From assembly GCA_028717055.1 (NCBI GenBank), contig JAQUOO010000001.1, positions 1-35,767 of the forward strand: a DNA stretch of 35,767 nt, read 5' to 3'. Position numbers and translations under genes: made by a program. Of the stretch, positions 6,413-32,686 are shown piece after piece; within the stretch, counting starts at the first letter, position 1, and each line of letters begins with the position of its first letter. The notes beneath the pieces were generated by a model, which saw nothing but the letters and a program-made list of their open reading frames with translations, ran no database searches and was not told the DNA's origin. This DNA comes from Candidatus Omnitrophota bacterium. GTDB taxonomy: Bacteria; Omnitrophota; Gorgyraeia; Gygaellales; Profunditerraquicolaceae.

Positions 6413-6679
6413 ATGACTATTACAAAGCTAAAAGCCAAGAATCAGATTACCCTGCCTAGCGCAATCGTAAAGAGGCTGCGCCTTAAGCCGGAAGAGTTGT
6501 TTACAGTGGATATTGAGGCGAATTATATCAAGCTTATGCCTGTTGAGGTGGCGCCCCGCCGCTATGCCGCCGAAGAACTGAAAGCGATTGATCGGATTGT
6601 GCAGAAAGAAAAAGGTAAGGCCAAGGTATTTAAAGCTGGTAAAGAATTCTCCGAATACGTCAAAAAACTGACTAAATGA
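6413..6679 (+). CDS. AbrB/MazE/SpoVT-family antitoxin
   Basis: MTITKLKAKNQITLPSAIVKRLRLKPEELFTV is a swapped-hairpin AbrB-type N-terminus. I prefer the ATG at 6413 (RBS GGAGGTG) to the listed TTG at 6365, because that TTG is the -35 box. Overlaps the downstream toxin gene by 4 nt. Confidence 0.7.
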   Translation: MTITKLKAKNQITLPSAIVKRLRLKPEELFTVDIEANYIKLMPVEVAPRRYAAEELKAIDRIVQKEKGKAKVFKAGKEFSEYVKKLTK

Positions 6680-18398: not shown

Positions 18399-21077
18399 AT
18401 GAGTGAAGCCGAAGCAAGGCAGGTTATTGATGGGTTATTAAGAGAAGCAGGTTGGATTATTCAAGATGTCCGTAAGATTAATCTTTCTGCGGGCAAGGGA
18501 GTCGCTATCCGCGAATTTCCCACCAAATCCGGCCCGGCCGATTACCTGCTTTTTGTCGACCGCAAAGCCATCGGCACCGTGGAAGCCAAAGCCGAAGGCA
18601 CCACGCTTTTAGGCGTGGCCGAGCAAACCGCCCGCTACAACGCTTCCATCCCGGAGAACCTGCCGCACGTTGACGATGTTCTTCCTTTTGCCTATGAATC
18701 CACCGGCATTGAAACCTTTTTCCGCAGCCAGCGCGATCCCGATCCCCGTTCCCGCCGCGTCTTTGCCTTCCATACCCCGGAAACCTTGGCCGCCTGGATC
18801 GACGAGCCGGAAACTCTGCGCCAACGCCTGCGCGAACTGCCGCCTTTAGAATCCTATAATCTGCGCCAGTGCCAGATTGAAGCCATTAACCATCTGGAAG
18901 TTTCCCTGCATGACAACCGCCCCCGCGCGCTCCTGCAAATGGCCACCGGCAGCGGCAAAACTTACACCGCCATCAGTGAGATCTATCGGCTGATTAAATT
19001 CGCCCAAGCCAAACGCGTGCTTTTCCTGGTTGACCGCTGTTCTCTCGGCCGCCAGGTCAAAAAAGAATTCCAGAACTACATCCCTTTTGACGACAACCGC
19101 GCTTTTACCGATCTCTATATCGTCCAGCACATGACCACCAACGTCTTTGACCAGGACGCCAAAGTCTGCATCACCACCATCCAGCGCCTTTTCTCCATGC
19201 TCAAAGGCGATCAGGATCTGGACGCCAGCCTCGAAGAACGCTCGCTCTATGAATCCACTTCTCCCGACATCGACCCCCAGGCCGTCAAATTCCGGGGCAA
19301 AATCCCCATTGAAACCTTTGATTTCATCATCGTTGACGAATGCCACCGCTCCATCTATAACCTCTGGCGCCAGGTTCTGGAATACTTTGATTCCTTTATC
19401 ATCGGCCTTACCGCCACTCCTTCAAACCAGACCATCGGCTTCTTTAATAAGAACCTGGTTATGGAATACGACCACAACCGGGCAGTGGCGGATAAAGTCA
19501 ACGTCGGCTTTGACGTTTACCGCATCCGCACCCAGACCACGGAAGAGGGCGGTAAAATTCCCTCCGGATTTTACGTGGACAAACGCGACAAACAAACCCG
19601 CCAGGTGCGCTGGGAAAAACTGGATCAAGACCTGGATTACACCCCGGACCAGCTTGACCGCAGCATCGTGGTCAAAGACCAGATCCGCACGGTCATCCGC
19701 GAGTTTAAGGAAAAACTTTTTACGGAAATTTTCCCCGGCCGCAGCGAAGTCCCCAAAACCCTGATTTTTGCCAAAGACGACAGCCACGCCGAGGACATTA
19801 CCGGGATTGTGCGCGAAGAATTCGGCAAAGGCAATGATTTCTGCAAGAAAATCACCTACCGCACCCAGGAAAATACCGATGACCTGATCGCCGCCTTCCG
19901 CAACAGCTACAATCCCCGGATTGCCGTAACCGTGGACATGATTTCCACCGGCACGGATATCAAGCCCCTGGAATGTATCTTATTCATGCGGGACGTCAAA
20001 TCCGCGGTCTATTTCGAGCAGATGAAAGGCCGCGGCACCCGGGTGATTGATTCCGACGACTTGCTGACCGTAACTCCCGACGCCAAAGCCAAGACGCATT
20101 TTGTTATTGTCGACGCCGTCGGCGTCTGCGAAAGCGAGAAGAGCCAGACCACCACCCTTGACCGTCAGAAAAGCGTGCCTACGCCCAAGCTTCTGAACAA
20201 TGTCGCCATCGGCATCCGGGATAACGATACCCTGTCCAGCTTGGCGGCGCGTTTATCCCGTTTAAACCTGGAATTAGAAGAAAGAGACATCCAGCGGATC
20301 AAAGAAGTATCCGGCGGCAAGACTTTAACCAATATCGTCAACGATTTGATGTCCGTGCTCGACCCGGATATTGCCCTGGATCGGGAAAAAGCCTGCGCTC
20401 CGTTTGATCAACCGGATTTTCGTGATTTGCTTACCGCTTTACAAACCAAGTCCGAGCAAACCATTGACACCACCACCGTGGATACAGTTATCCAATCCGG
20501 ATTTGACCAGCAAGCCCGGGAAAAAGCCTCATCCCTGGTTAAGAAATTCGAGCAGTTTATCGCCGAAAACAAAGATAAAATCACCGCTTTGCAGATTATC
20601 TACAATCTGCCTTACAAAAAACGCCACATCACCTATGAAGAGATCCGCGACTTAGCCGAGAAGATCGAAATGCCGCCTTACGGTTTTACCACCGATGCCC
20701 TCTGGCAGGCCTATCAGCAATTAGAAAAATCCAAAGTCCGCCCGGCTTCGATTCAGAAACAATTAACCGACATTATCTCGTTGGTTCGTTTTGCCACCCA
20801 CAAAGAAGAAGTCCTGGAGCCGTTCAAAGAACACGTCGAGCACCATTTCCAGGAATGGCTGAAAAACCAGCAAACTCTGGGTAAAACCTTTACCGCAAGG
20901 CAAATCCAATGGCTGACCATGATCTGCGACCACATCGCCGGTTCCGGCAGCCTGGCCAAACAAGATTTTCTTCTGCCGCCCTTTAGCGGCAGCGGCGGGA
21001 TTATTAAAGCGCAGGAAGTATTTGGGGATGAGTTGGATGAGGTAATTGAGGAGTTGAATACGGAGTTGGTGGGGTAA
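18399..21077 (+). CDS. hsdR: Type I restriction enzyme R subunit (nuclease, SF2 helicase and EcoEI_R_C-like tail)
   Basis: N-terminal PD-(D/E)xK region (ADYLLFVD...GTVEAKAEG). Helicase motif I QMATGSGKT and motif II IIVDECHR. C-terminal QIQWLTMICDHIAGSG...GGIIKAQEVFG. Confidence 0.9.
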   Translation: MSEAEARQVIDGLLREAGWIIQDVRKINLSAGKGVAIREFPTKSGPADYLLFVDRKAIGTVEAKAEGTTLLGVAEQTARYNASIPENLPHVDDVLPFAYESTGIETFFRSQRDPDPRSRRVFAFHTPETLAAWIDEPETLRQRLRELPPLESYNLRQCQIEAINHLEVSLHDNRPRALLQMATGSGKTYTAISEIYRLIKFAQAKRVLFLVDRCSLGRQVKKEFQNYIPFDDNRAFTDLYIVQHMTTNVFDQDAKVCITTIQRLFSMLKGDQDLDASLEERSLYESTSPDIDPQAVKFRGKIPIETFDFIIVDECHRSIYNLWRQVLEYFDSFIIGLTATPSNQTIGFFNKNLVMEYDHNRAVADKVNVGFDVYRIRTQTTEEGGKIPSGFYVDKRDKQTRQVRWEKLDQDLDYTPDQLDRSIVVKDQIRTVIREFKEKLFTEIFPGRSEVPKTLIFAKDDSHAEDITGIVREEFGKGNDFCKKITYRTQENTDDLIAAFRNSYNPRIAVTVDMISTGTDIKPLECILFMRDVKSAVYFEQMKGRGTRVIDSDDLLTVTPDAKAKTHFVIVDAVGVCESEKSQTTTLDRQKSVPTPKLLNNVAIGIRDNDTLSSLAARLSRLNLELEERDIQRIKEVSGGKTLTNIVNDLMSVLDPDIALDREKACAPFDQPDFRDLLTALQTKSEQTIDTTTVDTVIQSGFDQQAREKASSLVKKFEQFIAENKDKITALQIIYNLPYKKRHITYEEIRDLAEKIEMPPYGFTTDALWQAYQQLEKSKVRPASIQKQLTDIISLVRFATHKEEVLEPFKEHVEHHFQEWLKNQQTLGKTFTARQIQWLTMICDHIAGSGSLAKQDFLLPPFSGSGGIIKAQEVFGDELDEVIEELNTELVG

Positions 21078-21136: not shown

Positions 21137-23998
21137 ATGATAGAAAATTTACTTGATCATTTTAGAAAAATTTGGGGCAAACGGCAGCTAGTTTTATACA
21201 TTATTTTTTGTTTGATTGTTTTGGTAGCTCTTTGGGTAATTCTGTTAGATGTTTCAATGCCAAGCGGTTTTATTGATTATTTGCTATTGGTTGCCGCGTT
21301 CATAATTTTATTACCGGTTTTCTTCTTATTTTCTAATGAGCTAAAAAAGGAAAATATTTGGCATGCTCATTCTTGGTGTTATTATGTTATTCGGTTATTA
21401 GTTTTCACCCCAATATTATATTTTATCTATAAACTTTGTAAACTGGGTTGGCATTCTATATCTGCGTATTCTATTTTTATATTTGCTGCTCCTGTTTGGT
21501 TAATTACGTTTATATTTTATAAAAATATCAGAATAGAATTTGGTGATAAATGGATTTTTGCTCCAGATTCAGTTGGTAAAAATGGCGATAAATTCAATTT
21601 TAAAAGCTCATCAGAACGTATTGCTAACAGAATCATTAACGATGATTCATCTCTAAAGGTATATCTACTTGATGGTAGCCAAGGTTACGGTAAATCATCT
21701 TATGCCAGAATGATAGTGGAATCTTTAGGAAATCCTAAGGATGTTCTTTATACCTATGTTTCTTTAACGGAAACCAATGAAGAAAACGATTTGAGTAAGC
21801 TATTTGAAGAACGCTGGGAAATAACGTTAGCAGAGAGGTATCCTAGGATTTGTTCTGGTTGTTTTGATGGTATTGCAGAAATTATTCGTATTCCAGAAAC
21901 GCGGTTTTCGTTAAAGGATTTGTTTATAATCTTTAAATATATAGATTTCCCAATTAATAAAACTAAAGTGATAGAAAACAAATCCGAATCTAGTGCTGTT
22001 AAATATTGCTCAGAAAAGAATGCAAGATTATTTAGATGCGTTTCTAAAATACATGAGAAAGTGTGGGCAATTGTTTTTGATGAAGTTGATCGCGCATTGC
22101 CACGAGAAATTTACCGATTAGTAGAAATTGTTGAGCGATTTAAATACCTAGAGGCAGGGGAATTTCCAGTTAAACTGCGGTTTTTTATTTGTGTATCTCG
22201 TGAGAGGCTTGATGGAATATTTGAGGATGTTAAAGAGACTAATGATAAGCCATTAGGCGGATTCATTAAGGACTTCTTCGATTTAAAAAATCAAGATACT
22301 ATTATTTCTCTTCCTCTTGTTTCCTTCAAGAAACGTTGGCAATTCGTAAGAGGACTACTCAAGAATATCTATAAAAATGGACATGAGCTATCTGTATATA
22401 AAAATACTATGATTTTTTCGGGTATTTCTAATACCGTTGCGAATTTACTGACTTCTGAACAATCTTTACAGGTTGCAATTAAATTATTATGCGAGGAATC
22501 TCCCAGGGTAGCAAAGAAATGTATTAATTCAGCATCTTTTTGGAATGGTGTGTTTTTTAAAAAAGGTGCGGTTGGATATATCTATATACGTTTCAGCGAT
22601 CTTGTTTTAATGGAATATATACGAACTCGATATAAATTTCTGTGGAATTTTATGGAAAAGACTATTGAGCAAATACTCCCTGAGGAAAATGAAGATAAGA
22701 AATTATTTGATATGAATGACTATAAAACTAGGCTTAGAATAGAAGAGACTACGGCTGCAGCTTTTGGTACTTCAAAGCAAACATTATCTCCCCAACAGAA
22801 ATTAGCAGGTTGGATTAGAGAATATTATCCTGGAATAGAAGAGAAACTTTTAGATAGAGCAATACAAATTTTTACCGCAGCAGCTTTTTGTTATATCCAG
22901 TATTTTGATACTTCTCCACGCGCCGTAGTAGGAAACTCTCTTGGAAACGGATGGAATCTATATAGATATCTTAGTTTAAGTGGGGACTATTATGAATTTG
23001 ATAAATTAGAAATGTGGTATTTAGAACATAAAAACAAAGAGATCGGAGGCGGAGGTGTTTTTGCAAAGGTTAAAAGTTCAAAGGATTTAATACGTTATGC
23101 TTTAAATATTTGCCAAATTAAAGATGTTCCCCCAAGAGTTTTATTAGATACGGCTAAAGAGTTATGGAGTAGGCTAAGATCAAAAAGAATTAAATTTTCC
23201 AAATATAATTATCATGATAATAGTTTTAGGGTAACCTCTATTGCTAGAATTCCCCCGTTGCTTTATTTAATACTCCGAGATGAGAAAAAACCGATTGCTG
23301 AAAGTAATGAAGCTGAAGAAGCTATTAAATTATTCATCGATATTCTTCGTTCACAAGATGTCGAAATTGAGCTTAAATTGTCTTTACTAGAATACATTAA
23401 GTCCTACGAGGTAATTGGCAGGCCTTATGGTCCGGAGATGCACATTTTATTTTATAAGAACCTATTAAATACAGAATATGGGAATGAAGTTAAAACTGCC
23501 TATAGCTATGTTTTTGATGATTTTAAAAAAAGATATTTAGACAATAAAAATAATAATATTTATGAATTAGAAGGAAATGCTTTATATGTTTTATATAATA
23601 TTTGGTCAGGAGAAAAGAATGGGCAGGAAATAAATAGAATTCACGAAATAGCTGAAAGGTTTCTTGATAAGGACAAAGAAACCATATTGAAACTTTGGAG
23701 TTGCCTAAAAGACCCTCAAGAGCTTAGCGTTGATATCAAAGATGTTATAAAACCAAATTCATTTAATATATTTCTTTTTGTTGATCTTGATAAATTAATT
23801 GAAGCGACAGATGTCGCAATTAAAAAAGGCAACCCTGCGTTTTCTGAAAAAGTTGAAAAATACAGAAGCCTTTCTTTAACAGGGAGGTTAAAGGTAGAAA
23901 CGCTTATTATACCAAAAGAAGATACACTTAGAAGTTTCATAAACAGTCTTTTAAAAAAAAGAAATCAATCGGATGATGGCTATGAGCAAAGAAATTAA
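21137..23998 (+). CDS. KAP-family P-loop NTPase with four N-terminal transmembrane helices
   Basis: Four hydrophobic helices within residues about 18-128. Walker A LLDGSQGYGKSSYARM (nt 21674-21700). Walker B VWAIVFDEVDRALPREIYRLVEIVERFKYL, matching the KAP hhhhDD/ExDR signature. The C-terminal 600 aa or so look alpha-helical and match nothing I recognise. A hand-counted sample at 21201-21300 is 34% GC. Confidence 0.65.
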   Translation: MIENLLDHFRKIWGKRQLVLYIIFCLIVLVALWVILLDVSMPSGFIDYLLLVAAFIILLPVFFLFSNELKKENIWHAHSWCYYVIRLLVFTPILYFIYKLCKLGWHSISAYSIFIFAAPVWLITFIFYKNIRIEFGDKWIFAPDSVGKNGDKFNFKSSSERIANRIINDDSSLKVYLLDGSQGYGKSSYARMIVESLGNPKDVLYTYVSLTETNEENDLSKLFEERWEITLAERYPRICSGCFDGIAEIIRIPETRFSLKDLFIIFKYIDFPINKTKVIENKSESSAVKYCSEKNARLFRCVSKIHEKVWAIVFDEVDRALPREIYRLVEIVERFKYLEAGEFPVKLRFFICVSRERLDGIFEDVKETNDKPLGGFIKDFFDLKNQDTIISLPLVSFKKRWQFVRGLLKNIYKNGHELSVYKNTMIFSGISNTVANLLTSEQSLQVAIKLLCEESPRVAKKCINSASFWNGVFFKKGAVGYIYIRFSDLVLMEYIRTRYKFLWNFMEKTIEQILPEENEDKKLFDMNDYKTRLRIEETTAAAFGTSKQTLSPQQKLAGWIREYYPGIEEKLLDRAIQIFTAAAFCYIQYFDTSPRAVVGNSLGNGWNLYRYLSLSGDYYEFDKLEMWYLEHKNKEIGGGGVFAKVKSSKDLIRYALNICQIKDVPPRVLLDTAKELWSRLRSKRIKFSKYNYHDNSFRVTSIARIPPLLYLILRDEKKPIAESNEAEEAIKLFIDILRSQDVEIELKLSLLEYIKSYEVIGRPYGPEMHILFYKNLLNTEYGNEVKTAYSYVFDDFKKRYLDNKNNNIYELEGNALYVLYNIWSGEKNGQEINRIHEIAERFLDKDKETILKLWSCLKDPQELSVDIKDVIKPNSFNIFLFVDLDKLIEATDVAIKKGNPAFSEKVEKYRSLSLTGRLKVETLIIPKEDTLRSFINSLLKKRNQSDDGYEQRN

Positions 23999-24665
23999 TA
24001 TAGTTATTTTATGGAATATTTTTTGTAATGCCTTACCACAGGTTATATCTTTTTTAGCGGGGTTTTTCACCGCCATATTTGCCCAGCCAATCAGGGAAAT
24101 GTTATTTAAACCTTGTTTGGAATTAAGTTTTAACAACACTAATGATTTTATATCTTTGACTCCAGAAAGTGGGCGCATGGAAGGTAAGCCAGCGCAATTT
24201 AAAGCTTATTATATAAGAGTAAAAGTAACTAATAATAAAAATATAACAGCCCAAAATTGTAAGGCTTATTTAGTTAATATAGAGAAACTAAATACTGAGA
24301 GCATTTTTAAATCAACCATTTATTGTGATAGTATACCTTTAGCATGGTCTTGTCAGAATATCGGAGAACAGTATGAAGGAATTAATATTAATAAAGGTGT
24401 AAATCAATTTGTAGATATTGTTACCACCAGGCATCTTGTTACTGAGGGGGATATATTTTATCCCAAAATGCAACAGCCAGATAATTCTGATATTCTATAT
24501 CCACAGATTAAATTATTGCCATTTAGGTATGAAAGTATATTTAAAGAGAAAGGAACTTTTCGTTTTACTATTCAAGTAACTTCCGCGAATGCCGATCCGC
24601 GTAATATTAGAATTGTATTGGTTTGGAATGGTAAGTGGGATAAGTTTGATGTATTACAAGGTTAG
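23973..24665 (+). CDS. membrane-anchored hypothetical protein (single N-terminal TM, beta-rich body)
   Basis: Candidate ATGs at 23973, 23976 and 23982 all overlap the end of the KAP gene (stop at 23996-23998), which suggests translational coupling. TM segment VILWNIFCNALPQVISFLAGFFTAIFA. No recognisable motif. Confidence 0.5.
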   Translation: MMAMSKEINIVILWNIFCNALPQVISFLAGFFTAIFAQPIREMLFKPCLELSFNNTNDFISLTPESGRMEGKPAQFKAYYIRVKVTNNKNITAQNCKAYLVNIEKLNTESIFKSTIYCDSIPLAWSCQNIGEQYEGININKGVNQFVDIVTTRHLVTEGDIFYPKMQQPDNSDILYPQIKLLPFRYESIFKEKGTFRFTIQVTSANADPRNIRIVLVWNGKWDKFDVLQG

Positions 24666-24763
24666 GCAACGCAATCCATGACGATAAAAGCTATTTAAAA
24701 AGAAATTAGTATTGAATCCGTTATATGTTGAAAGTCGTTTGGCATTATTGAAAAGGGATAGAG

Positions 24764-25882
24764 ATGCACAAGAAGTGTACTCTTTGCGGTAGTGAGATAA
24801 TAAAAGAGAATGATTCTGAAGAGCATGTCATTCCACAGGCAATAGGTGGACGTTTAACGGTAAAAGGTTTTATCTGTAAAGGATGTAATGGTAAGAGTGG
24901 ACAAGAGTGGGATGCAGTTTTAGCTAAGCAGTTAAATCCCTTGTCATTGTTTTTCGGTATAAAGCGTGAACGTGGGCAAGCCCCTTCTCAAAAGTTCCCA
25001 ACATCTACTGGTGGAGAATTTGAACATCATACTGATGGCAGTCTTTCTTTAGTGAAACCGGAATTCCATGTTAGGAAAGTTGATGGTAAAACGGAGATAA
25101 AGATTGTTGCGCGTTCAGATAAAGAATTAAACCGATTATTAAAAGGGCTGAAAAAGAAATATCCTCAAGTTAATATTGGAGATTTAAAAGCTAAAGCAAC
25201 TCATGAAACAATCCATCCTGATGGGTTCTTCCACTATAAGCTGAATGCTGGCGGTGAGAAGGCTGGTAGATCTCTTGTTAAAACAGCAATTGCTTTTGCG
25301 TATAGCATGGGTATTCCAATATCTCATTATGCAGATGCTTTAAGATATTTGAAAGAAAATAAATGCAACCCGCCGTTCGGTTATTATTCACAAGATGTAT
25401 TAATTAAACGTCCTATTGGTATTCCATTGCATTGCGTTGCGATTATCGGTGATCCGGAAGTGAAGCTTCTTTTATGTTATATAGAATATTTTTGCTTTGA
25501 GAGAGTAGTTATTTGTTTATCTGAACAATATGAAGGAGAAAAAATATCTAAACTTCACGCTTTAGATCCCGTATCTGGGGAGAGCATAGATATTGGTATT
25601 GATTTCCCTATTAAAGATTTAAAGGTTAAAGACTTATATGAGTATAAACTTTTTTCTCCACAAATGGTAGAGGAAGCTTTAGGTAATGTTATCGGCCCGC
25701 GCTTGAAAATAAAGCAAGATCAGGAGAGGAATGAAGTGATCGATAGGGCTATAAATACAGCTATTAAAAATAGCGGTTGTAAACCAGGAGAACCTTTTAC
25801 GGCGGAGCATATTAAGAAGATGGCCGATAATATTGCAGCGCAGATGCTGCCGTATATTATTCATATAAGAACGCGAAAATAA
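24764..25882 (+). CDS. HNH endonuclease domain protein with about 300-aa uncharacterised C-terminal region
   Basis: N-terminal CTLCGSEI...SEEHVIPQAIGGR...FICKGCNGKSG (nt 24776-24889) gives CxxC ... EH ... CxxCN, an HNH beta-beta-alpha-Me finger. Its stop at 25880-25882 is 1 nt before the hsdS ATG. Confidence 0.7.
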   Translation: MHKKCTLCGSEIIKENDSEEHVIPQAIGGRLTVKGFICKGCNGKSGQEWDAVLAKQLNPLSLFFGIKRERGQAPSQKFPTSTGGEFEHHTDGSLSLVKPEFHVRKVDGKTEIKIVARSDKELNRLLKGLKKKYPQVNIGDLKAKATHETIHPDGFFHYKLNAGGEKAGRSLVKTAIAFAYSMGIPISHYADALRYLKENKCNPPFGYYSQDVLIKRPIGIPLHCVAIIGDPEVKLLLCYIEYFCFERVVICLSEQYEGEKISKLHALDPVSGESIDIGIDFPIKDLKVKDLYEYKLFSPQMVEEALGNVIGPRLKIKQDQERNEVIDRAINTAIKNSGCKPGEPFTAEHIKKMADNIAAQMLPYIIHIRTRK

Positions 25883-25883
25883 G

Positions 25884-27143
25884 ATGACCGATTGCGTTAA
25901 ACTTAATGAAATAGGGACGATTTATTCTGGGGGAACACCTAGAACGAGTGTCACTAAATATTGGGATGGTAATATTGTTTGGGTGACTCCGAAAGATCTT
26001 AGTGAGGTAACATCTGTCTCTATAATAGATTCAACTCGGAAACTCACTAAATTGGGATTAAAAGAATCTTCTGCACAATTAATCCCCGCAGGTTCCGTGG
26101 TTCTTTCAAGTCGTGCCCCTATAGGATACGTTGCAATTGTTGATGTTGATTTTGCTACTAATCAGGGATGTAAATCAATAAAACCAGTAGCGTCCATCTA
26201 CAATAGATATGTTTATTACTATTTAAAATCGCAGACAAAAGAATTAAATCAACGTGGAAGCGGCACAACTTTTCTTGAACTATCAAAAGCTGCATTCTCA
26301 AATTTTGAGATTCCTATTTGTCCTCTTTTAGAACAAAAACGTATTGTCGCCAAGATTGAAAGTTTGTTTTCGCGGCTGGATAGCGCCAAGGATTCGCTGG
26401 AGCGTGTGCGCCAGGAGATCAAGCGCTATCGCCAGTCAGTGCTTAAATCGGCGTTTGAGGGGAAGTTAACGGGAAGCGTTAAATTTGAAATAAAGAAAAT
26501 ATGTGATGTAGGAGAAGTTATTACTGGTAATACCCCAAGTAAGAGAAGAAAAGATTATTATGGCGGTGATGTAAATTTCTTTAAGCCGACAGACCTTAAT
26601 GCTGGGATATTGATGTATGGCTCGCGAGAGAAATTGTCTAAGTTAGGTCTAGAAGAGGGGAGATTTGCCAAGGCTGGCTCAGTTTTGGTGACATGTATTG
26701 GTGCAACTATAGGGAAAACAGCTTTTATGAATGAAGACGGAGCCTTTAATCAGCAGATAAACGCTGTGATTCCACAGAAAGAGATAAGCGGAAAGTATCT
26801 TTATTATTTCTTTATTTCAAAAGGTTTTCAGGACGCGTTGATTGAAGGAGCGTCCTCAACAACTATGCCAATCATTAACAAAACAAGATTTGAAAATCTT
26901 ATTGTTTCTATTTGTGATCTTAAGCAACAGATTAAGATAGTGGAATCTATTGAGTCTCGTTTTGAACGGTCTAAGACATTGGAAGAAGCGGTCGAGCAAG
27001 GCATAACGAAAATTGAGCAACTAAAACAGAGTATCTTAAAGAAAGCCTTCGAAGGCAAGCTGGTTGAACCCGATCCAAATGATGAACCGGTGGAGCTATT
27101 ACTAGAGAGAATACAGAAAGAAAAGAATAAAATAAATTTTTAA
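25884..27143 (+). CDS. hsdS: Type I restriction-modification specificity subunit
   Basis: Two target-recognition halves, each followed by the conserved helical repeat: LLEQKRIVAKIESLFSRLD...RQSVLKSAFEGKL and DLKQQIKIVESIESRFE...KQSILKKAFEGKLV. Confidence 0.9.
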   Translation: MTDCVKLNEIGTIYSGGTPRTSVTKYWDGNIVWVTPKDLSEVTSVSIIDSTRKLTKLGLKESSAQLIPAGSVVLSSRAPIGYVAIVDVDFATNQGCKSIKPVASIYNRYVYYYLKSQTKELNQRGSGTTFLELSKAAFSNFEIPICPLLEQKRIVAKIESLFSRLDSAKDSLERVRQEIKRYRQSVLKSAFEGKLTGSVKFEIKKICDVGEVITGNTPSKRRKDYYGGDVNFFKPTDLNAGILMYGSREKLSKLGLEEGRFAKAGSVLVTCIGATIGKTAFMNEDGAFNQQINAVIPQKEISGKYLYYFFISKGFQDALIEGASSTTMPIINKTRFENLIVSICDLKQQIKIVESIESRFERSKTLEEAVEQGITKIEQLKQSILKKAFEGKLVEPDPNDEPVELLLERIQKEKNKINF

Positions 27144-27147
27144 TATT

Positions 27148-27576
27148 ATGGTTTCAGAGGAATACGAAAAAATTAATATCGCAGTTTCTTTGCTGGAAAC
27201 AGCTTGTAAATTATACAAAAAAGATGACTTTTTTGCTGTAATTAATCTCGCTGGAGCGAGTGAAGAGATCCTGGGTAAATATCTTAAGGCGAGAGGTAAA
27301 AAGAATGCATTAGAGTCGGATCGAGAAGCGCTTGTAGCAATAAATAAATATTTTGGGAAAGATTTAACCAATGAGAAAGCCACAATAATTTTAAATTATG
27401 TAAAGAATGCACTTAAACATTATAATGGGATAGACGATAGTGATAAGTTCATTTTAATGGATGCCCAAAGTGATTCTTCGTATTTACTTGTTAGAGCCTT
27501 AACTAATCTCTGGAGACTAGAGATGGAGTTAACTCCCATAATGAATGAAGTGTGGGAGATGATTGAGAAACGATAA
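27148..27576 (+). CDS. small alpha-helical protein, HEPN-like (non-canonical KNALKH in place of R-x4-H)
   Basis: 142 aa, starting 4 nt after the hsdS stop. AVINLAGASEEILGKYLKARG resembles the HEPN a-x-E-x-x-L-K helix. NYVKNALKH is at nt 27403-27420. This is a weak, motif-level call only. Confidence 0.35.
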   Translation: MVSEEYEKINIAVSLLETACKLYKKDDFFAVINLAGASEEILGKYLKARGKKNALESDREALVAINKYFGKDLTNEKATIILNYVKNALKHYNGIDDSDKFILMDAQSDSSYLLVRALTNLWRLEMELTPIMNEVWEMIEKR

Positions 27577-27602
27577 CGCTAGAGTGAGTAATGAGTAGTT
27601 CT

Positions 27603-27680
27603 ATGAGCGAGAATGAAATAGTCCAAAAGGTATGGAATTATTGCGATGTGCTGCGGGATGACGGGGCAGAAGAAATATAA
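27603..27680 (+). pseudogene. relic copy 1 of the hsdM 5' end (first 21 codons, then divergence and a stop)
   Basis: MSENEIVQKVWNYCDVLRDDG is identical in protein to the live hsdM N-terminus at 30400. There are 5 nt differences in 63 nt, all at synonymous third positions. Similarity ends at codon 22 and a TAA follows at 27678-27680. Confidence 0.85.
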
Positions 27681-27732
27681 ACGTATTTTAGATTGAAACC
27701 TATTTAATTATAAGTAGTTATGGCAAGAAATT

Positions 27733-27760
27733 ATTTATGTAAACTATAGTTTACATAAAT
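27733..27760. repeat. perfect 28-bp palindrome
   Basis: ATTTATGTAAACTA|TAGTTTACATAAAT, with exact 14+14 dyad symmetry. It ends 6 nt before the ATG at 27767. Confidence 0.9.
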
Positions 27761-27766
27761 TTCATT

Positions 27767-28251
27767 GTGCAAATTATGACGGTTGAATATACTACACAAT
27801 ATAGCGATTCTTCAAATTGGTTTAGACAGGCCAGAGAAATGTTTATTGTTTCTAAAATTCTTCGGGATGATTTTATGAACAGAAGAAAGAATCCCCCGAA
27901 GACGGAAGAAATGTTGGAATGTAGCGCGGGATTGCTTAAAGGGGCGATGTTCTTCTTAGGCTTATCGATAGAGAATGCTTTAAAAGGGTTTATATCAGAA
28001 TCGCGCCGAATGGAAGATTCCCCCGGAGTCATAATCTACGCAAATTAGCGACTTCGGCAAAGCAAAATCTTTCTCGCGAAGAACTTGTTTTATTAGATCG
28101 CCTGACGGTCTATATCAAGTGGGCAGGGAAATACCATATTCCGCTGGAGAAAGACGCTGATCAATTGAACACGTCGTTAAGGATGACTGTTCCTAATGAT
28201 TTCCGGATGGCAGAAAAATTGTTGATAGGTATGAAAGTATTTGGTGATTAA
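27767..28251 (+). pseudogene. HEPN-domain gene (classical PF05168-like) interrupted by a frameshift
   Basis: Frame A reads ...GLSIENALKGFISESRRMEDSP and stops at 28046-28048. The -1 frame continues with RSHNLRKLATSAKQNLSREELVLLDRLTVYIKWAGKYHIP...FGD and stops at 28249-28251. Together these give the HEPN pattern a-E-x-a-L-K ... H-x-L-x-x-L ... W-x-x-[RK]-Y. A C5 run at 28020-28024 is the likely indel site. Confidence 0.6.
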
Positions 28252-28336
28252 AACCAAAAAACGCTTTTGGGCGATTTCTTGAGAATTCTGTTAGATTTAT
28301 CGGTTCTGCGCGTCTATTGTTGTGGAGGCATAAACA

Positions 28337-28873
28337 ATGGACCAGCGCAAGCCAAATCGCCTAAAAGGTTACGATTATTCGCAGAATGGGTATTATTTTG
28401 TAACGATTTGCACGTATGGCAGGCAGGAATGGTTTGGGAAAATATCAAATGGGGATATGGAATTGAATACAAACGGTTGTATTGTATCCGCGTGTTGGAA
28501 TGATTTACCGAATCATTATCGGAATGTCGAATTGGATGAATTTATTGTAATGCCAAACCATGTGCATGGGATTATTGGGATTAATAATGTAGGGAACGGT
28601 TTGAAACCGTTCCCTACAACGGATCAATTAATACCATCCAAAACAAAAAACCACGGATTATCGGAAATTATCCGCGGATTAAAAACGTTTTCGTCACGGC
28701 GAATTAATGGAACAATTGAATCCGGCAATAAATTCCATTGGCAGAAATCGTTTTACGACCATATTATTCGGAATGAATTGTCGTTGAACCGCATTCGTGA
28801 ATATATTGTTAATAATCCAAGAAATTGGAACGAAGATGAGGAAAATATTTTTAAGGATAAGGGGAATTCATGA
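28337..28873 (+). CDS. IS200/IS605-type Y1 (HUH) transposase, RayT / REP-associated-like
   Basis: NRLKGYDYSQNGYYFVTICT, HUH motif MPNHVHGII, and the catalytic-Tyr region WQKSFYDHIIR. Solo gene with no tnpB. Confidence 0.75.
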   Translation: MDQRKPNRLKGYDYSQNGYYFVTICTYGRQEWFGKISNGDMELNTNGCIVSACWNDLPNHYRNVELDEFIVMPNHVHGIIGINNVGNGLKPFPTTDQLIPSKTKNHGLSEIIRGLKTFSSRRINGTIESGNKFHWQKSFYDHIIRNELSLNRIREYIVNNPRNWNEDEENIFKDKGNS

Positions 28874-28923
28874 GTGAAAATGAAATAGTCCAAAAAGTCT
28901 GGAATTACTGTATTATATTTTAG
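28870..28923 (+). pseudogene. relic copy 2 of the hsdM 5' end (first 14 codons)
   Basis: MSENEIVQKVWNYC followed by IIF and a stop. There are 3 nt differences from the live gene in 42 nt, all at synonymous third positions. Its ATG overlaps the transposase stop (ATGA). Confidence 0.8.
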
Positions 28924-28966
28924 TTGGGTCGTTACTAATGTGGTGATATAAGGGATCGAGATTAAT

Positions 28967-29746
28967 ATGGTTCAGGAAGCTGTGTGGCGATGGAATGTAA
29001 ATGATATTTGGCAGAGCTTTTCATCAATGTATCAGGAGATGGCTTTTTCTGATACAGCAACTAATACTATTGAGAGGTACCATCATTTAAGCGCGTGCCT
29101 TTTGTTTGGCGGGTGCGCTATTGAGTCTTTTTTGAATTCGAATATGAGAACTCATCTTAAGAAAAGCGAAGAATTGGAAGATAACGTGATCAAGCTGCTT
29201 CGCTATACCGCATTGCGTAAGAAGATTGAATCTTGGCCATCTGATATTTGCGGAGTCACAATCGACAAACAAGATCTAGATATCTTGCTAGAATTCCTTG
29301 ATCTCCGCAATGAAGTAACGCATAGAAAACGTAAGGATCATTCTTTATATAAAGAACTTGATGAAATATCTCCCATTAATTTTTTAGAAGCTGTGCAAAG
29401 AACATTTGTGCAGTTTTATTATGGACAGGGCAATTCTTTCCCTTATTGGTTACTTGGATGGAATTTTGTGGGGATGAATAGTGATTATACACATCCATGT
29501 TTAATGAATAACCAGCAATTTAAATATGCTTTGAATAGCATGGGGTTTAGAGTTCCCGCTAGTGACTATGGCGCTGCTAATGCATGGGAAGAAGAGAATA
29601 TGAAGGGGGTCGAAGCATTTTCCAGGTTGAAAAGAGATTATTACCTTAAAGCTCCGGATATAGAGCCGAAGAGTAAAATGTTTCACCGAGCTCCAAGATT
29701 ATGCAAGCGTTGGTGGGATAAGCAGCTTATTCTAGGGATAGATTAA
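28967..29746 (+). CDS. HEPN-domain protein with canonical R-x4-H motif
   Basis: 259 aa. GGCAIESFLNS helix and LDLRNEVTHRK (RNEVTH at nt 29306-29323), which matches the R-[NHQD]-x3-H signature of HEPN RNases. Confidence 0.55.
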   Translation: MVQEAVWRWNVNDIWQSFSSMYQEMAFSDTATNTIERYHHLSACLLFGGCAIESFLNSNMRTHLKKSEELEDNVIKLLRYTALRKKIESWPSDICGVTIDKQDLDILLEFLDLRNEVTHRKRKDHSLYKELDEISPINFLEAVQRTFVQFYYGQGNSFPYWLLGWNFVGMNSDYTHPCLMNNQQFKYALNSMGFRVPASDYGAANAWEEENMKGVEAFSRLKRDYYLKAPDIEPKSKMFHRAPRLCKRWWDKQLILGID

Positions 29747-29848
29747 TGTTTAAGAATTTCGGAGGCAAAGATACTTGAGGATACAGATGATTAATGGTTT
29801 GATAAAATTGAGCAGTTAAAAAGGCAAAACTCAAACAAAGGAGGGGCT

Positions 29849-30148
29849 GTGACTAAAGATAATAATGATTTAAAAAAGAAATTCCTTTCAGTGCTAAAAA
29901 TCATTGAAAGAATGCAGGATACAGAAACGAAAAACTTTATCAATAGAAATAATGGTGTCCCGATAGGCGTGGTCATGGGGGCAATGCACTATTTTGATAT
30001 GAAGGAGGTGCACGAAGTAGTAAGCGATATGTTGCAGTGTTTCGAGATTAAATTATCAAAATATTGCTTGACGCTTCCAAGTCCTGTTGATCAAACGAGT
30101 GAAACAGCTTTCTTGAGAACATGCGTTCTGCAAAAACGTAAAGATTGA
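29849..30148 (+). CDS. hypothetical small protein
   Basis: 99-aa ORF with a GTG start and AGGAGG 5 nt upstream. No recognisable motif. Confidence 0.4.
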   Translation: MTKDNNDLKKKFLSVLKIIERMQDTETKNFINRNNGVPIGVVMGAMHYFDMKEVHEVVSDMLQCFEIKLSKYCLTLPSPVDQTSETAFLRTCVLQKRKD

Positions 30149-30346
30149 TATCTGATTGTTATGGTAAACACGCATTAGTTGATTGGTTATCTCTAATTGT
30201 GGGTTTTTGTTTTAAAGCTGTAATTAAAACCATGGGAGGAGAAATGCTATATCAAACTTTAACATGTGGGGGCGCCCTGGCCCGACTATTAATCTTTGGG
30301 GGCAGCCAATGTTAATGATGCGCGTTAGCCAAGAAGGGCCAGAGCT

Positions 30347-30370
30347 AGGGTTCGATTCCCTTTGCCTCCA
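30347..30370 (+). other. tRNA/tmRNA 3'-end-like fragment (T-arm plus acceptor 3' strand), not an intact RNA gene
   Basis: AGGGTTCGATTCCCT (30347-30361) contains the canonical GGTTCGATTCC T-loop. It is followed by TTGCCTCC and A, with no encoded CCA. CTGGCCC (30277-30283) pairs with GGGCCAG (30336-30342) just upstream. It lies 30 nt before hsdM. Confidence 0.4.
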
Positions 30371-30399
30371 TTAATTTAGACAATTTAATAAGGATATGT

Positions 30400-31860
30400 A
30401 TGAGCGAAAATGAAATAGTCCAAAAGGTCTGGAATTACTGCGATGTTCTGCGGGATGATGGGGTCAGCTACGGCGATTATGTGGAGCAGTTGACCTATTT
30501 GCTGTTCCTGAAAATGTCCGATGAGCGGGATGAGTTGTTTCATGACAGCGAGATTCCGGCGAAGTATGACTGGAGGTCGCTTAAGAAACTGGAAGGCGAG
30601 CCGCTGGAGGGGCATTATATCACGGTGTTGCGGGAGTTGGGCAAACAGAAGGGGATTATCGGCAGGATTTTTAGCAAATCCCAGAATAAGATCCAGGATC
30701 CGGCTAAGCTGAAGCGGTTGATCAATATGATCGACGCCGAGAAATGGCTGGGGTTGGATATTGATATCAAGGGCGTGATTTATGAAGGGTTGCTGGAGAA
30801 GAATGCCCAGGATACCAAAGGCGGCGCCGGGCAGTATTTTACTCCCCGGCCTTTGATCAAGGCTATGGTGGAAGTGATGAAACCGCAATCGGGCATGAAG
30901 ATTTGCGATCCGGCTTGCGGCACCGGCGGGTTTTTGTTGAGTGCTTTTGATTATGTGATCAAGAATAATCCCGCCTTGTCCAAAGGCGGTAAGGAATTTA
31001 TGGTTAATGAGGCGTTGTATGGTGTGGATATCGTGGAATCGGTTGCCCGGTTGTGCGCAATGAATATGTATCTGCATGGAATCGGCTCCAAGCGCTGTCC
31101 GGTAGAAATGGCGGATTCTTTAGCGGCGAAAGGCAGCGAGCATTTTGACCTGGTCTTGACCAATCCGCCGTTCGGCAAGAAGAGTTCGACCACGGTTATC
31201 GCTGAAGACGGCAAGGCGGTGAAAGAAAAAGATTCCTATGAGCGCGATGATTTCTGGACCACGACTTCAAACAAGCAGCTGAATTTTGTCCAGCATATCG
31301 CCTCGATCCTGAAAGTCCACGGCCGGGCTGCGGTAGTGGTTCCGGATAACGTTTTATTTGAGGGCGGGGCAGGAGAGACGGTAAGAAGGAAGCTCCTGCA
31401 TGATTTTGACCTGCATACCATTTTGCGCCTGCCCACCGGTATTTTCTACGCCCAGGGAGTCAAGGCCAACGTGATCTTCTTCGACAAGAAGCCGGCGCAG
31501 GAAAAGCCCCGGACGTCCAAAATTTGGTTCTACGACCTGCGCACCAATAAACATTTTACCTTAAAAGAGAACACGCTAAAGTTCGAGGACCTGGCGGACT
31601 TCATTAAATGCTACAATCCGGACAACTGGGCCAAACGCAAAGAAAGCGAACGTTTTAAAGCGTATGATTATAACGAAATCCTCAAGCGCGACAAAGTAAG
31701 CCTGGACATCTTCTGGCTGAAAGACGAATCGCTGGAAGATTTAGAGAATCTGCCTGATCCTGATGAAATAGCTGAGGATATTGTGAAAGATCTAGAATCT
31801 GCGTTGGAGGAATTTAGTGGAGTATTGGAGGATTTAAAGATAAAGAAAGATAAGAAATAG
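30400..31860 (+). CDS. hsdM: Type I restriction-modification N6-adenine DNA methyltransferase subunit
   Basis: HsdM N-terminal helix MSENEIVQKVWNYCDVLRDDG. Motif I ICDPACGTGGFL and motif IV LVLTNPPFGKK. RBS AAGGA. Confidence 0.9.
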   Translation: MSENEIVQKVWNYCDVLRDDGVSYGDYVEQLTYLLFLKMSDERDELFHDSEIPAKYDWRSLKKLEGEPLEGHYITVLRELGKQKGIIGRIFSKSQNKIQDPAKLKRLINMIDAEKWLGLDIDIKGVIYEGLLEKNAQDTKGGAGQYFTPRPLIKAMVEVMKPQSGMKICDPACGTGGFLLSAFDYVIKNNPALSKGGKEFMVNEALYGVDIVESVARLCAMNMYLHGIGSKRCPVEMADSLAAKGSEHFDLVLTNPPFGKKSSTTVIAEDGKAVKEKDSYERDDFWTTTSNKQLNFVQHIASILKVHGRAAVVVPDNVLFEGGAGETVRRKLLHDFDLHTILRLPTGIFYAQGVKANVIFFDKKPAQEKPRTSKIWFYDLRTNKHFTLKENTLKFEDLADFIKCYNPDNWAKRKESERFKAYDYNEILKRDKVSLDIFWLKDESLEDLENLPDPDEIAEDIVKDLESALEEFSGVLEDLKIKKDKK

Positions 31861-31955
31861 ATCTTCGTTAGATTTTGCCTTTCCCTGCGTCTATTGAGTA
31901 GAGGCAGAAAAGAATGTTTATCTAAACAGCACTGGGAAAAGTAATTAGAAAAGAC

Positions 31956-31984
31956 TTGTAAACTATGACACCTAGTGTTATACT
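31956..31984 (+). promoter_or_regulatory. sigma70-like promoter for the downstream TA pair
   Basis: TTGTAA at 31956-31961, a 17-nt spacer containing ACAC-n3-GTGT, then TATACT at 31979-31984. Confidence 0.45.
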
Positions 31985-32001
31985 TTAGATGGAAAGGCAG
32001 T

Positions 32002-32376
32002 ATGAGGTATTTAAAGAATAACAGGTTTCAAAGAGATTTAAAAAACAATGGTTTGGATGACGAGAACTTAGAATCAGTATTAGACGATATTTTTGACGGC
32101 AGGGCAACACCGTTAGGAAGCAAGTTTTACAAGATTCGCGGGGCGAAAGAAGGGAAAGGTAAAAGAAGCGGGTTTAGAACCTTATTTTTCTGGAAAAAAG
32201 AGAAAATTATAGTTTTTTGTTTATTGTTCGCCAAGAATGAACAAGATAACTTAACTTCGGATGAAAAGAAAGTACTTAAAATTCTATCCAACGAATACGA
32301 TAAGTTGACAGATGGAGAAATTCAGCGGTTGATCAATGAGAAAACATTTACGGAGATTGGATATGTTAAGAAATAA
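32002..32376 (+). CDS. RelE/HigB-like addiction-module toxin (COG4737/DUF1044-like)
   Basis: The ATG at 32002 (RBS GGAAAGG) is preferred to the listed GTG at 31975, which lies inside the promoter. GSKFYKIRGAKEGKGKRSGFRTLFFWKKEKIIVFCLLFAKNEQDNL is characteristic of this family. Confidence 0.6.
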   Translation: MRYLKNNRFQRDLKNNGLDDENLESVLDDIFDGRATPLGSKFYKIRGAKEGKGKRSGFRTLFFWKKEKIIVFCLLFAKNEQDNLTSDEKKVLKILSNEYDKLTDGEIQRLINEKTFTEIGYVKK

Positions 32377-32686
32377 AAATAGTCATTCAAAAGTTATGGA
32401 TATGGTTGAAGAGGACCTGCATGCCATAAATAAGATCAAGGATACTTCTGAAAGCATTAGAAAGTTTAACAAGATTAGATATCTACCTCCGAAGCATTTC
32501 ACAAAAAACGATATAGTCAAAATTAGGTCAAATCTACACGTGAGCCAAGCGGTATTCGCTTTTCTTTTGAATGCCAGCGAAAGCACTGTTAAGAAATGGG
32601 AACTGGGCGCCAAGGAGCCCGGAGGCGCGAATGCCAGGTTATTGCAGATTATTGAAAAAAGGGGAGTTGAGATATTGAAAGTTTGA
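32363..32686 (+). CDS. XRE/HTH antitoxin (COG2944-like)
   Basis: C-terminal HTH LHVSQAVFAFLLNASESTVKKWELGAKEPGGANARLL. The ATG at 32363 overlaps the end of the toxin gene by 14 nt. The listed ATG at 32336 is also possible. Confidence 0.6.
   Translation: MLRNKNSHSKVMDMVEEDLHAINKIKDTSESIRKFNKIRYLPPKHFTKNDIVKIRSNLHVSQAVFAFLLNASESTVKKWELGAKEPGGANARLLQIIEKRGVEILKV

Follow-up and report, generated by a model that had tools for sequence, protein, structure and literature searches.

HEPN-like genes and truncated hsd sequences in a variable hsdS-hsdM junction of an Omnitrophota Type I restriction-modification locus

Introduction

At least 16 clades of HEPN proteins, solo proteins included, have been linked to restriction-modification (R-M) operons, and a PrrC-like second-line role has been proposed for them (Anantharaman et al. 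2013, PMC3710099); the R-M-linked solo families comprise ApeA, AbiU2, AbiJ solos, Ymh (PF09509), DUF4145 and EC042_2821/DUF3644 (PMC3710099). Embedded defence genes that share the orientation of their host system are common in Type I R-M, BREX, DISARM and Hma; one of them, HEC-08, is a solo HEPN protein embedded in Hma whose protection against phage needs the histidine of the Rx4-6H motif; the same study left the origin of embedding to a 'genomic sink' idea and did not address its mechanism (Payne et al. 2024, bioRxiv 10.1101/2024.01.29.577857). Two systems within Type I R-M loci have been studied experimentally, TgvAB of Vibrio cholerae VPI-2 (PMC11411939) and DarTG2 of enteropathogenic Escherichia coli (PMC12255303). 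Here we analyse a contig of 35,767 nucleotides (nt) from a Candidatus Omnitrophota bacterium (JAQUOO010000001.1, assembly GCA_028717055.1), which is a whole contig of a metagenome-assembled genome (MAG) and is called the window below, with coordinates on its forward strand. Its Type I R-M locus has hsdS and hsdM parted by a stack of small genes, among them three HEPN-like open reading frames (ORFs), namely ORF142, a frameshifted gene of 158 amino acids (aa) and ORF259, together with truncated copies, or relics, of hsd gene ends. We propose that this hsdS-hsdM (S-M) gap is probably a cargo bay and recombination hotspot holding three unrelated HEPN-type genes, probably for RNases, one of which is broken.

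The locus resembles the embedded genes of Payne et al. in its same-strand nesting between hsd genes, in a cargo that consists mostly of defence or toxin genes and in its variability among related systems. It differs in that Pfam and PADLOC-DB v2 contain none of the cargo families here, in that several cassettes are stacked, and in that hsdM 5' and hsdS 3' relics between the cassettes expose a recombination history. With HEC-08 and the R-M-linked solo HEPNs it shares small proteins with an R[N]xxxH motif, encoded in an R-M operon without an ABC ATPase or MNT partner, and the proposal of a second-line defence aimed at RNA; ORF142, however, has K for R and is a minimal HEPN of AbiV-like kind, and the Pfam matches here are all below threshold. 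ApeA carries its HEPN domain C-terminally, after a beta-rich domain of 300 aa, whereas that of ORF259 is N-terminal and is followed by a domain of about 100 aa. An earlier note on this DNA, made from its sequence alone, had seen in the partnerless HEPN genes a departure from known arrangements; that claim is not supported, since solo HEPN genes in R-M operons are documented, at least 16 HEPN clades being linked to R-M (PMC3710099), and HEC-08 is a solo HEPN gene embedded in Hma. The embedding of solo HEPN and defence genes in R-M is already known, and the loci described here add uncharacterised members.

Other described systems are close in part. PrrC, of the EcoprrI locus, is the model for latent RNases guarded by an R-M system, and it shares with the present locus a HEPN-type gene inside a Type I hsd locus. 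PrrC and RloC are fused to an N-terminal ABC/Rad50-like ATPase, unlike our three ORFs; for these, physical coupling to the R-M complex and latency of the PrrC kind under it would be pure analogy. HEPN-MNT (HepT-MntA) toxin-antitoxin pairs give the best structural matches to the N-terminal domain of ORF259, but no nucleotidyltransferase gene adjoins any of the three ORFs. Integron arrays, too, line up single-gene cassettes that are promoter-poor and co-oriented, all at one site and bounded by repeated sequences; here, by contrast, there is neither integrase nor attC, the boundary repeats are fragments of flanking genes of variable length, and exchange appears to use general homologous recombination. 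A limited literature search found no description of hsd-gene relics as cassette boundaries or as evidence of an exchange mechanism.

Results

Variable cargo at the hsdS-hsdM junction

The genes of the locus are ordered hsdR-hsdS-hsdM. Every gene from 18399 on lies on the forward strand, and the ORFs from 21137 to 30148 are nested among the three hsd genes. The features on which the argument rests are the following.

18399-21077, forward strand: hsdR, the left conserved flank of the variable block (Pfam ResIII, EcoEI_R_C and HSDR_N; GC 0.52)
25884-27143, forward strand: hsdS, specificity subunit (Methylase_S, E 8e-50)
27148-27576, forward strand: ORF142, AbiV-like and HEPN-type, 142 aa, with KNALKH at 27403-27420; its start is 4 nt past the hsdS stop
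27603-27666, forward strand: hsdM 5' relic 1 (codons 1-21), 64 nt, 92% identical to nt 1-64 of the live hsdM
27667-27760, forward strand: a 66-nt spacer and a perfect 28-bp palindrome (27733-27760, 14+14)
27776-28251, forward strand: 158-aa PF05168-like HEPN gene, a pseudogene with a 1-nt deletion in the G run 27986-27988
28290-28319, forward strand: junction motif GTTAGATT-N13-GCGTCTATTG, about 30 nt, promoter-like, 18 nt upstream of the Y1 start
28337-28873, forward strand: RAYT-like Y1 (HUH) transposase gene (Y1_Tnp, E 3e-8), its stop overlapping the ATG of relic 2
28870-28910, forward strand: hsdM 5' relic 2 (codons 1-13), 41 nt, 95% identical to nt 1-41 of the live hsdM
28967-29746, forward strand: ORF259, with an N-terminal HEPN domain and a conserved C-terminal domain of about 100 aa; RNEVTH at 29306-29323 (R114/H119)
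29764-29821, forward strand: relic of the hsdS 3' conserved region, missed by the earlier note, between ORF259 and the next ORF (ORF99)
30400-31860, forward strand: live hsdM, the right conserved flank (N6_Mtase, E 1e-73, and HsdM_N; GC 0.49)

All features listed in the earlier note are present where it had placed them. Its account of an AT-rich gap is likewise reproduced exactly (GC 32/100 at 29301-29400, 55/100 at 30801-30900); GC is 0.49-0.52 in hsdR and hsdM and 0.32-0.40 across the whole middle.

We compared the locus with 80 loci encoding HsdM relatives, taken from species-representative genomes across many phyla; metagenome contigs were added separately. Upstream of hsdM and on its strand, 63 of the 80 have an hsdS and 57 an hsdR. 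The distance between hsdS and hsdM in those 63 loci is below 100 nt in 8 and at least 500 nt in 54, with a median of 2.3 kb and a maximum of 6.4 kb. The 131 larger forward-strand ORFs of these gaps fall into 66 Pfam families, the commonest of which, after hsdS tails, are Fic, SLFN_AlbA_2, AbiEii/AbiEi, AAA_15/21 with RloB, and Mrr, followed by PIN, WYL, DarT with Macro, RVT (reverse transcriptase) and GmrSD. Gap sizes and cargo families together indicate that loci of this clade generally house defence and toxin genes at the S-M junction, which acts as a bay for them.

The closest comparison is with a near-isogenic metagenome contig, L107, found through its hsdM-start pattern. Its upstream gene and hsdR are 96-99% identical to those of the window at the nucleotide level and its hsdM 92.7%, whereas the stretch between hsdR stop and hsdM ATG is wholly different: another hsdS (43% aa identity) and six other cargo genes, including Ymh and a weak DUF4145 match, both HEPN families, along with two hsdM-start relics. 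Identity is 98.5-100% up to about position 19266 and then 90-95% over the rest of hsdR. This step at about 19267, inside hsdR, bears the signature of an import of the variable block by homologous recombination, with one crossover in hsdR.

Individual cassettes are also shared between loci. The block 28945-29751, consisting of ORF259 and 22 nt upstream of it, is 86% identical to a block in L001, where it follows hsdS and a DUF2971 gene. From 27602 to 28335, relic 1 with its spacer and palindrome, the HEPN gene and the junction motif form a block that has 84.5% identity to L088 and L089, in which a different gene precedes it and a Fic gene takes the place of Y1 after it. The Fic gene of L089 has 97% identity to one in L010, which sits there between a relic and hsdM, and L090 and L009 have in common a Ymh cassette (93% identity), in differing arrangements. 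The earlier note had likened the S-M junction to a cassette array and had named cassette variation among related genomes as the check. Such variation is found, in the occupied gaps, in the different cargo of L107 and in gene-tight cassettes common to several loci.

Relics, shared junctions and the palindrome

Both hsdM relics of the earlier note are borne out. Similarity of relic 1 to the live gene starts at 27589; its 5 differences, like the 2 of relic 2, are all synonymous. Because all 7 are synonymous third-position changes, the relics must derive from distinct, once-functional hsdM alleles and not from the decay of a duplicate in place. A degenerate hsdM-start pattern has 3 matches in the window and 0 in 100 shuffles, and none in viral contigs. 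Across the survey, at least 13 of the genome loci and 5 of those from metagenomes contain hsdM-start relics; all begin at the ATG and are 41-495 nt long, and at the live gene the homology of relatives begins between ATG-1 and ATG-9. Non-synonymous relic changes are common in other loci, and the relics of L088 contain stop codons and a frameshift, so that they are decaying scars and not coding elements. We also note two Burkholderiales loci, L070 (5112-8368, 13139-14450 and 16553-17052) and L060 (11524-12300), with many hsdM fragments on both sides of the live gene, including internal and 3' pieces; these resemble complex scrambling or tandem partial copies.

The hsdS relic is 84% identical to positions 6457-6513 of the L009 hsdS and 76-79% identical to the hsdS 3' ends of L001, L011, L088 and L090, and it also matches the window's own hsdS, whose DNA-level match to relatives is confined to the central and 3' conserved regions. 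Relics of the hsdS 3' end are found in the window and in L090.

The palindrome ATTTATGTAAACTATAGTTTACATAAAT is, as the earlier note had described, a perfect 14+14 inverted repeat. It is 100% identical in the window, L088 (5957-5984), L089 (2818-2845) and L107 (2895-2922), in flanks that are 73-84% identical. In all four contigs a 64-nt hsdM relic and some 66 nt of spacer come before it, and directly after it comes either the 158-aa HEPN gene or an AAA_14/DUF4143 gene. A role as an RptR-type operator was considered and dropped, as it bears no resemblance to the TAGCTA repeats of that operator. The truncation junction of relic 1 is common to the window, L088/L089 and L107. Upstream of the relic-spacer-palindrome module stand three different cargos (ORF142, an LRAT-like gene and a 187-aa ORF) and downstream of it two different genes (the 158-aa HEPN gene and AAA_14/DUF4143). 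The same junction with differing genes on both sides implies that it formed once and has since recombined on each side. The earlier note had divided the gap into three units, each closed by an hsdM start. Given that relic 1, spacer and palindrome are inherited as one block with differing upstream cargo, and that the hsdS relic splits the third unit, this partition is not the natural one.

The junction motif has 7 matches in 1.45 Mb, on the forward strand only and each just upstream of a gene start: 28290-28319 and 31867-31896 (after the hsdM stop) in the window, 11472 and 14762 in L010, 6515 in L088, 3376 in L089 and 6540 in L090. The distance to the called start is 11-52 nt where close and mostly about 18-20 nt to the nearest ATG, sometimes with a GGAGG-like site and an ATG after it. 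The genes that follow are mutually unrelated (Y1, Fic, KilA-N, a RelE-like toxin and the gene after hsdM). A portable promoter or operator is one way to read the motif, a junction site another. Scans for sigma-70 promoters and terminators gave no excess over shuffled expectation.

Three HEPN-like proteins

ORF142 is identical to NCBI protein PHY88_00140. Its AlphaFold2 model (pLDDT 84.6) has as top Foldseek matches the AbiV HEPN RNase (9bj7), AF_0298, TT1696 and ST0689, all HEPN proteins and the last three from archaea or Thermus, with weak scores (E 0.23-2.4, probability at most 0.69, TM 0.34-0.48). The close family is tiny; a profile search reached 1035 representative clusters, nearly all of 140-150 aa. 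Across 70 family representatives the motif reads [R/K]NxxKH, with R in 42 (60%) and K in 27 (39%), and its K and H are invariant; near-invariance also holds for N83, E40, R116 and N120, and at position 39 every sequence has an acidic residue, E in 61 and D in 9. The window's protein and five close relatives have KNA[LIS]KH, which falls outside a strict Rx4-6H motif. Pfam, PADLOC, NCBIfam and PHROGs gave no family match for ORF142; 3 of the 70 family members match HEPN_Apea weakly. A HEPN-like protein is the best reading of ORF142, with the predicted fold and the motif as indications and not as proof. Relatives at 27-32% identity are encoded in nine viral or proviral IMG/VR contigs (L092-L100), so the family is not limited to cellular R-M loci.

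ORF259 has 71 homologues, nearly all of 255-262 aa. In an alignment of 40 of them, reaching down to 32% identity, H119, E53 and N57 are invariant and R114 is near-invariant, and RNEVTH, with its polar residue after R, fits the HEPN Rx4-6H motif. The AlphaFold2 model (pLDDT 92.6) shows the HEPN domain as an all-alpha up-down bundle at residues 13-153, with roughly 100 aa of mixed alpha/beta structure after it. In the PDB the N-terminal ~140 residues are matched best by HepT/HEPN toxins (6m6w, 7bxo, 8xeh), with Foldseek probability up to 0.97 and target-normalised TM of 0.56-0.61 at an E-value of only 0.17-1; the C-terminal domain has no structural match in the PDB, and Foldseek against viral structures gave nothing meaningful. 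Pfam matches of the window's protein are below gathering (RiboL-PSP E 0.035, Apea E 0.055), and among the 40 homologues 13 match HEPN_Apea (best 6.4e-5), 5 HEPN_RiboL-PSP and 3 DUF3644. We accept ORF259 as a HEPN protein with a conserved catalytic-type motif. Of 7 contexts of its relatives, 3 are within or beside Type I R-M and 2 more are defence or toxin-antitoxin islands; relatives of both ORF142 and ORF259 are known outside R-M loci too. A tblastn search of plasmids gave no match to ORF259. A conserved upstream partner was considered and rejected, the upstream neighbours in L001-L004 being mutually unrelated. In L116 (1-14786), we note, an ORF259 homologue starts 2 nt past the hsdR of another Type I system, whose S-R gap holds a SIR2 and two TIR genes, and is followed by KAP NTPase, T5orf172, Schlafen and AbiEii genes in a large defence island.

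The middle gene had been called a frameshifted classical HEPN gene. DNA alignment with L088 and L090 places the missing G in the run 27986-27988, and the corrected protein is 81% identical, gap-free and over its full length, to the intact 158-aa protein P0078, which bears out the frameshift. It is a pseudogene here, unless the missing base is a sequencing error. A provisional in-silico repair matches PF05168 with E 0.0015 and 19.1 bits (gathering score 22); 4 of 7 family members match PF05168 and no other Pfam family, all under the gathering score. Three longer contexts of the family are available, and all are S-M gaps of R-S-M loci.

Searches of PDB sequences with profiles of the three families returned nothing significant. 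In profile-profile comparison the families match one another with probabilities of 0.4-2.4%, so that common ancestry is not shown, and the stretches aligned are the RNxxxH and ExxL[NK] helices. The E-x-x-L-[KN] helix from which the earlier note had linked the three proteins is thus real, its residues invariant within each family, whereas the families themselves are not shown to be related (probability below 3%). The HEPN calls of that note are plausible for all three, with the reservations that ORF142 has K, not R, and that the middle family is without a conserved Rx4-6H. The fold prediction it had suggested yields models of ORF142 and ORF259 that resemble HEPN structures, at weak E-values, and leaves the idea standing. 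Its statement that no NTPase or MNT partner accompanies the three ORFs also agrees with domain searches: no P-loop domain was matched in the 142-, 158- and 259-aa proteins, nor NTP_transf_2 or Polbeta among the ORFs of 27148-30399.

The Y1 gene and neighbouring features

Nothing interrupts the Y1 gene, which retains an HVH motif and the conserved Y; it scores 67.6 bits against NCBIfam REP_Tyr_transpos, under the equivalog cut-off of 80. Its nearest copy, in L010, lies outside hsd genes at 79% nt identity and shares only the block 28261-28849. Between the HUH and Tyr motifs lies a perfect 15+15 inverted repeat with a 1-nt loop (28588-28618), kept base for base in L010 (15061-15090) save for the loop base, next to coding sequence with indels. 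In L005 a Y1 gene neighbours an ORF142 homologue.

Other features of the locus are as follows.

21137-25882, forward strand: hsdR-hsdS (R-S) cargo, namely a 953-aa KAP-like P-loop protein, an overlapping 230-aa ORF and a 372-aa HNH_5 nuclease
29849-30148, forward strand: ORF99, an orphan and doubtful gene, in frame with the hsdS relic
30268-30373, forward strand: tmRNA-end-like element (Rfam RF00023, 23.3 bits against a gathering score of 47, E 1.8e-6)

The R-S cargo (KAP_NTPase weak at E 0.004, HNH_5 at E 5e-13; GC 0.32-0.37) is not present in L107 or L009-L012. The hsdR-hsdS junction is a second cargo bay, which instead has an OLD-like ATPase and UvrD in L090 and a D12 methyltransferase in L107.

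ORF99 has no family match and forms a singleton cluster among about 15 billion proteins; PADLOC, NCBIfam and PHROGs gave no match for ORF99 or for the three HEPN-like ORFs. As an orphan parted from ORF259 by the hsdS relic, it was rejected as a partner of ORF259.

The 106-nt tmRNA-like element has a 5' acceptor strand with G3:U, a long helix, a T-arm and a 3' acceptor strand, carries ...CCUCCA followed by UUA, and lacks the D-loop-like part and the interior, the latter replaced by 47 nt; it stands 27 nt upstream of hsdM. It was not found in related loci, and ARAGORN calls no tRNA or tmRNA in the window. The 'tRNA-like fragment' of the earlier note thus exists as an element, but what it matches is the joined 5' and 3' ends of tmRNA, below threshold. 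It could be a relic of an ssrA-type attachment site, or chance.

Directly after hsdM, a RelE/HigB-like toxin gene (PF06296, E 4e-24) overlaps a gene for an HTH/MqsA-like partner (31975-32686); the pair has a GC of 0.36 and lies between hsdM and a high-GC methyltransferase gene, which in L010 comes after Y1. The first 18 kb of the window hold ordinary metabolic genes. Domain searches found no integrase, resolvase or IntI in the window.

Discussion

We propose that the whole block from the hsdR stop to the hsdM start, comprising cargo, hsdS and more cargo, is a recombination hotspot in this clade, in which small, co-oriented, gene-tight defence and toxin cassettes are gained, lost and reshuffled among related loci. 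The vehicle would be homologous recombination within the conserved hsd genes together with occasional imprecise joins; the latter would account for the truncated hsdM 5' and hsdS 3' ends that lie between cassettes. Order and mechanism of these events are what we infer from the arrangement of the sequences. The history may have run through repeated one-sided homologous and illegitimate joins, or through circles with an hsdM-start fragment integrating by single crossover. ORF142 and ORF259 would most likely be stand-alone RNase effectors, co-expressed with the R-M genes and stopping translation in infected cells as a second-line or abortive defence.

Several observations weigh against this reading. 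All HEPN assignments are sub-threshold (Pfam bits below gathering, Foldseek E 0.17-2.5). In the motif of ORF142 a K replaces the catalytic R, and the relatives of this protein are mostly outside R-M loci, including the nine viral contigs; the middle gene is broken in the window, and no conserved Rx4-6H was found in its family alignment. Searched against the 217 gap ORFs of the 80 genome loci, HMMs of the three families match the window's own genes only. The palindrome is perfectly conserved and has no assigned role, and the relics are short 5' fragments, all under 500 nt of 1461, a bias that random illegitimate joins do not explain. A different view of the proteins is that they are HEPN-fold proteins without a nuclease or defence role, such as nucleotide-binding proteins, regulators, antitoxin-like proteins or selfish 'genomic sink' passengers. 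This would fit the K of the ORF142 motif, the missing Rx4-6H of the PF05168-type family, the pseudogene state of one of the three genes, the absence of any PADLOC match and the homologues seen in non-defence contexts; many PF05168 proteins are non-catalytic. We consider it unlikely, though it deserves serious weight: conserved polar residues cluster in the ORF142 family (N83, K90, H91, R116, N120) and in ORF259 (R114, E116, H119), the neighbours in related gaps are overwhelmingly defence or toxin genes, and HEC-08, a solo HEPN embedded in Hma, loses phage protection on mutation of its motif histidine.

For the origin of the stack, the relics are best read as recombination scars, possibly still homology anchors. 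A bolder proposal, compatible with recombination in the hsd genes as an addition to it, makes the hsdM-start copies working anchors of an integrase-free, RecA-driven cassette array. Cargo between direct repeats (the first 40-100 nt of hsdM) would loop out as a circle and re-enter at any related hsdM start by a single crossover, or would be swapped when relic and hsdM both cross over; the final portion of hsdS would serve as an anchor too, and the palindrome as a control or recombination site of one module. The relic-spacer-palindrome junction, with differing cargo on both sides, must have been through exchanges on each of them, cargo after a relic ends at another hsdM start in every complete case, and relics are far shorter than random truncation would give. 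The proposal is nonetheless tentative, a possibility that we do not favour: 41-64 nt of homology at 85-95% identity is a poor RecA substrate, the relics of L088 are decaying, with stops and a frameshift, and non-synonymous changes are common elsewhere. No circular forms were found, nor pairs of empty and occupied alleles differing by one repeat-flanked unit, and the strong conservation of hsdM starts leads one to expect block boundaries at the ATG whatever the model.

Other mechanisms fare worse. That the Y1 (HUH) transposase and palindromes built the stack, the middle unit being an IS200/IS605- or RAYT-type element that brought the HEPN gene along and picked up hsdM ends, is improbable, because the palindrome module travels without Y1 (no Y1 gene accompanies it in the L088 and L089 contigs or the L107 gap) and the nearest Y1 copy, at 79%, lies outside hsd genes in a block that does not include the HEPN gene. 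The gene is intact in its HVH motif and Y and matches Y1_Tnp and REP_Tyr_transpos, a perfect palindrome stands to the left of the unit and another within the gene, and Y1 lies beside an ORF142 homologue in L005; yet no matching right-end hairpin was found, the subterminal hairpins or REP array of such elements are not seen, the NCBIfam score is under the equivalog cut-off, and the flank after the element is hsdM nt 1 where a simple insertion would give nt 65. Site-specific integration at an att-like site in the hsdM start or the tmRNA-like element, comparable to ssrA islands or attI cassettes, would account for gene-end direct repeats flanking inserted DNA, as at tRNA and tmRNA sites, for the tmRNA-end-like element 27 nt upstream of hsdM and for the perfectly conserved 28-bp palindrome. 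We judge it very unlikely, since no recombinase was found (no integrase, resolvase or IntI in the window or among the top 25 Pfam families of the 131 gap ORFs) and relic lengths vary from 41 to 495 nt, with no single crossover point; the tmRNA-like element, moreover, is missing from all relatives. Finally, the source is a MAG contig with GC steps at hsd gene borders, and repeated hsdM starts could in principle mislead an assembler, so that the stack might be a chimera of co-existing metagenome strains. We give this hardly any credence, because the independent assemblies L088, L089 and L107 have the same junctions; the repeats are just 41-64 nt long and differ at 2-5 positions, GC steps at gene borders occur in all relatives, and the R-S-cargo-M order matches more than 50 other loci.

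Embedding within R-M, BREX and Hma is now used to discover immune systems, and its origin is explained only by the vague notion of a 'genomic sink'. Our analysis offers three uncharacterised HEPN-type candidates, among them the ORF142 family with about 1000 clusters and no Pfam model and ORF259 with a new C-terminal domain, and it brings together R-S-M Type I loci from different phyla as a clade whose S-M junction is hardly ever empty. The relics, the shared junctions and the identity step in hsdR make the mechanism of exchange testable. If the hsdM-start copies do act as anchors, host recombination alone could excise, transfer and re-insert cassettes at any related Type I locus, and such an R-M-anchored cassette array would explain how defence genes get embedded in immune systems.

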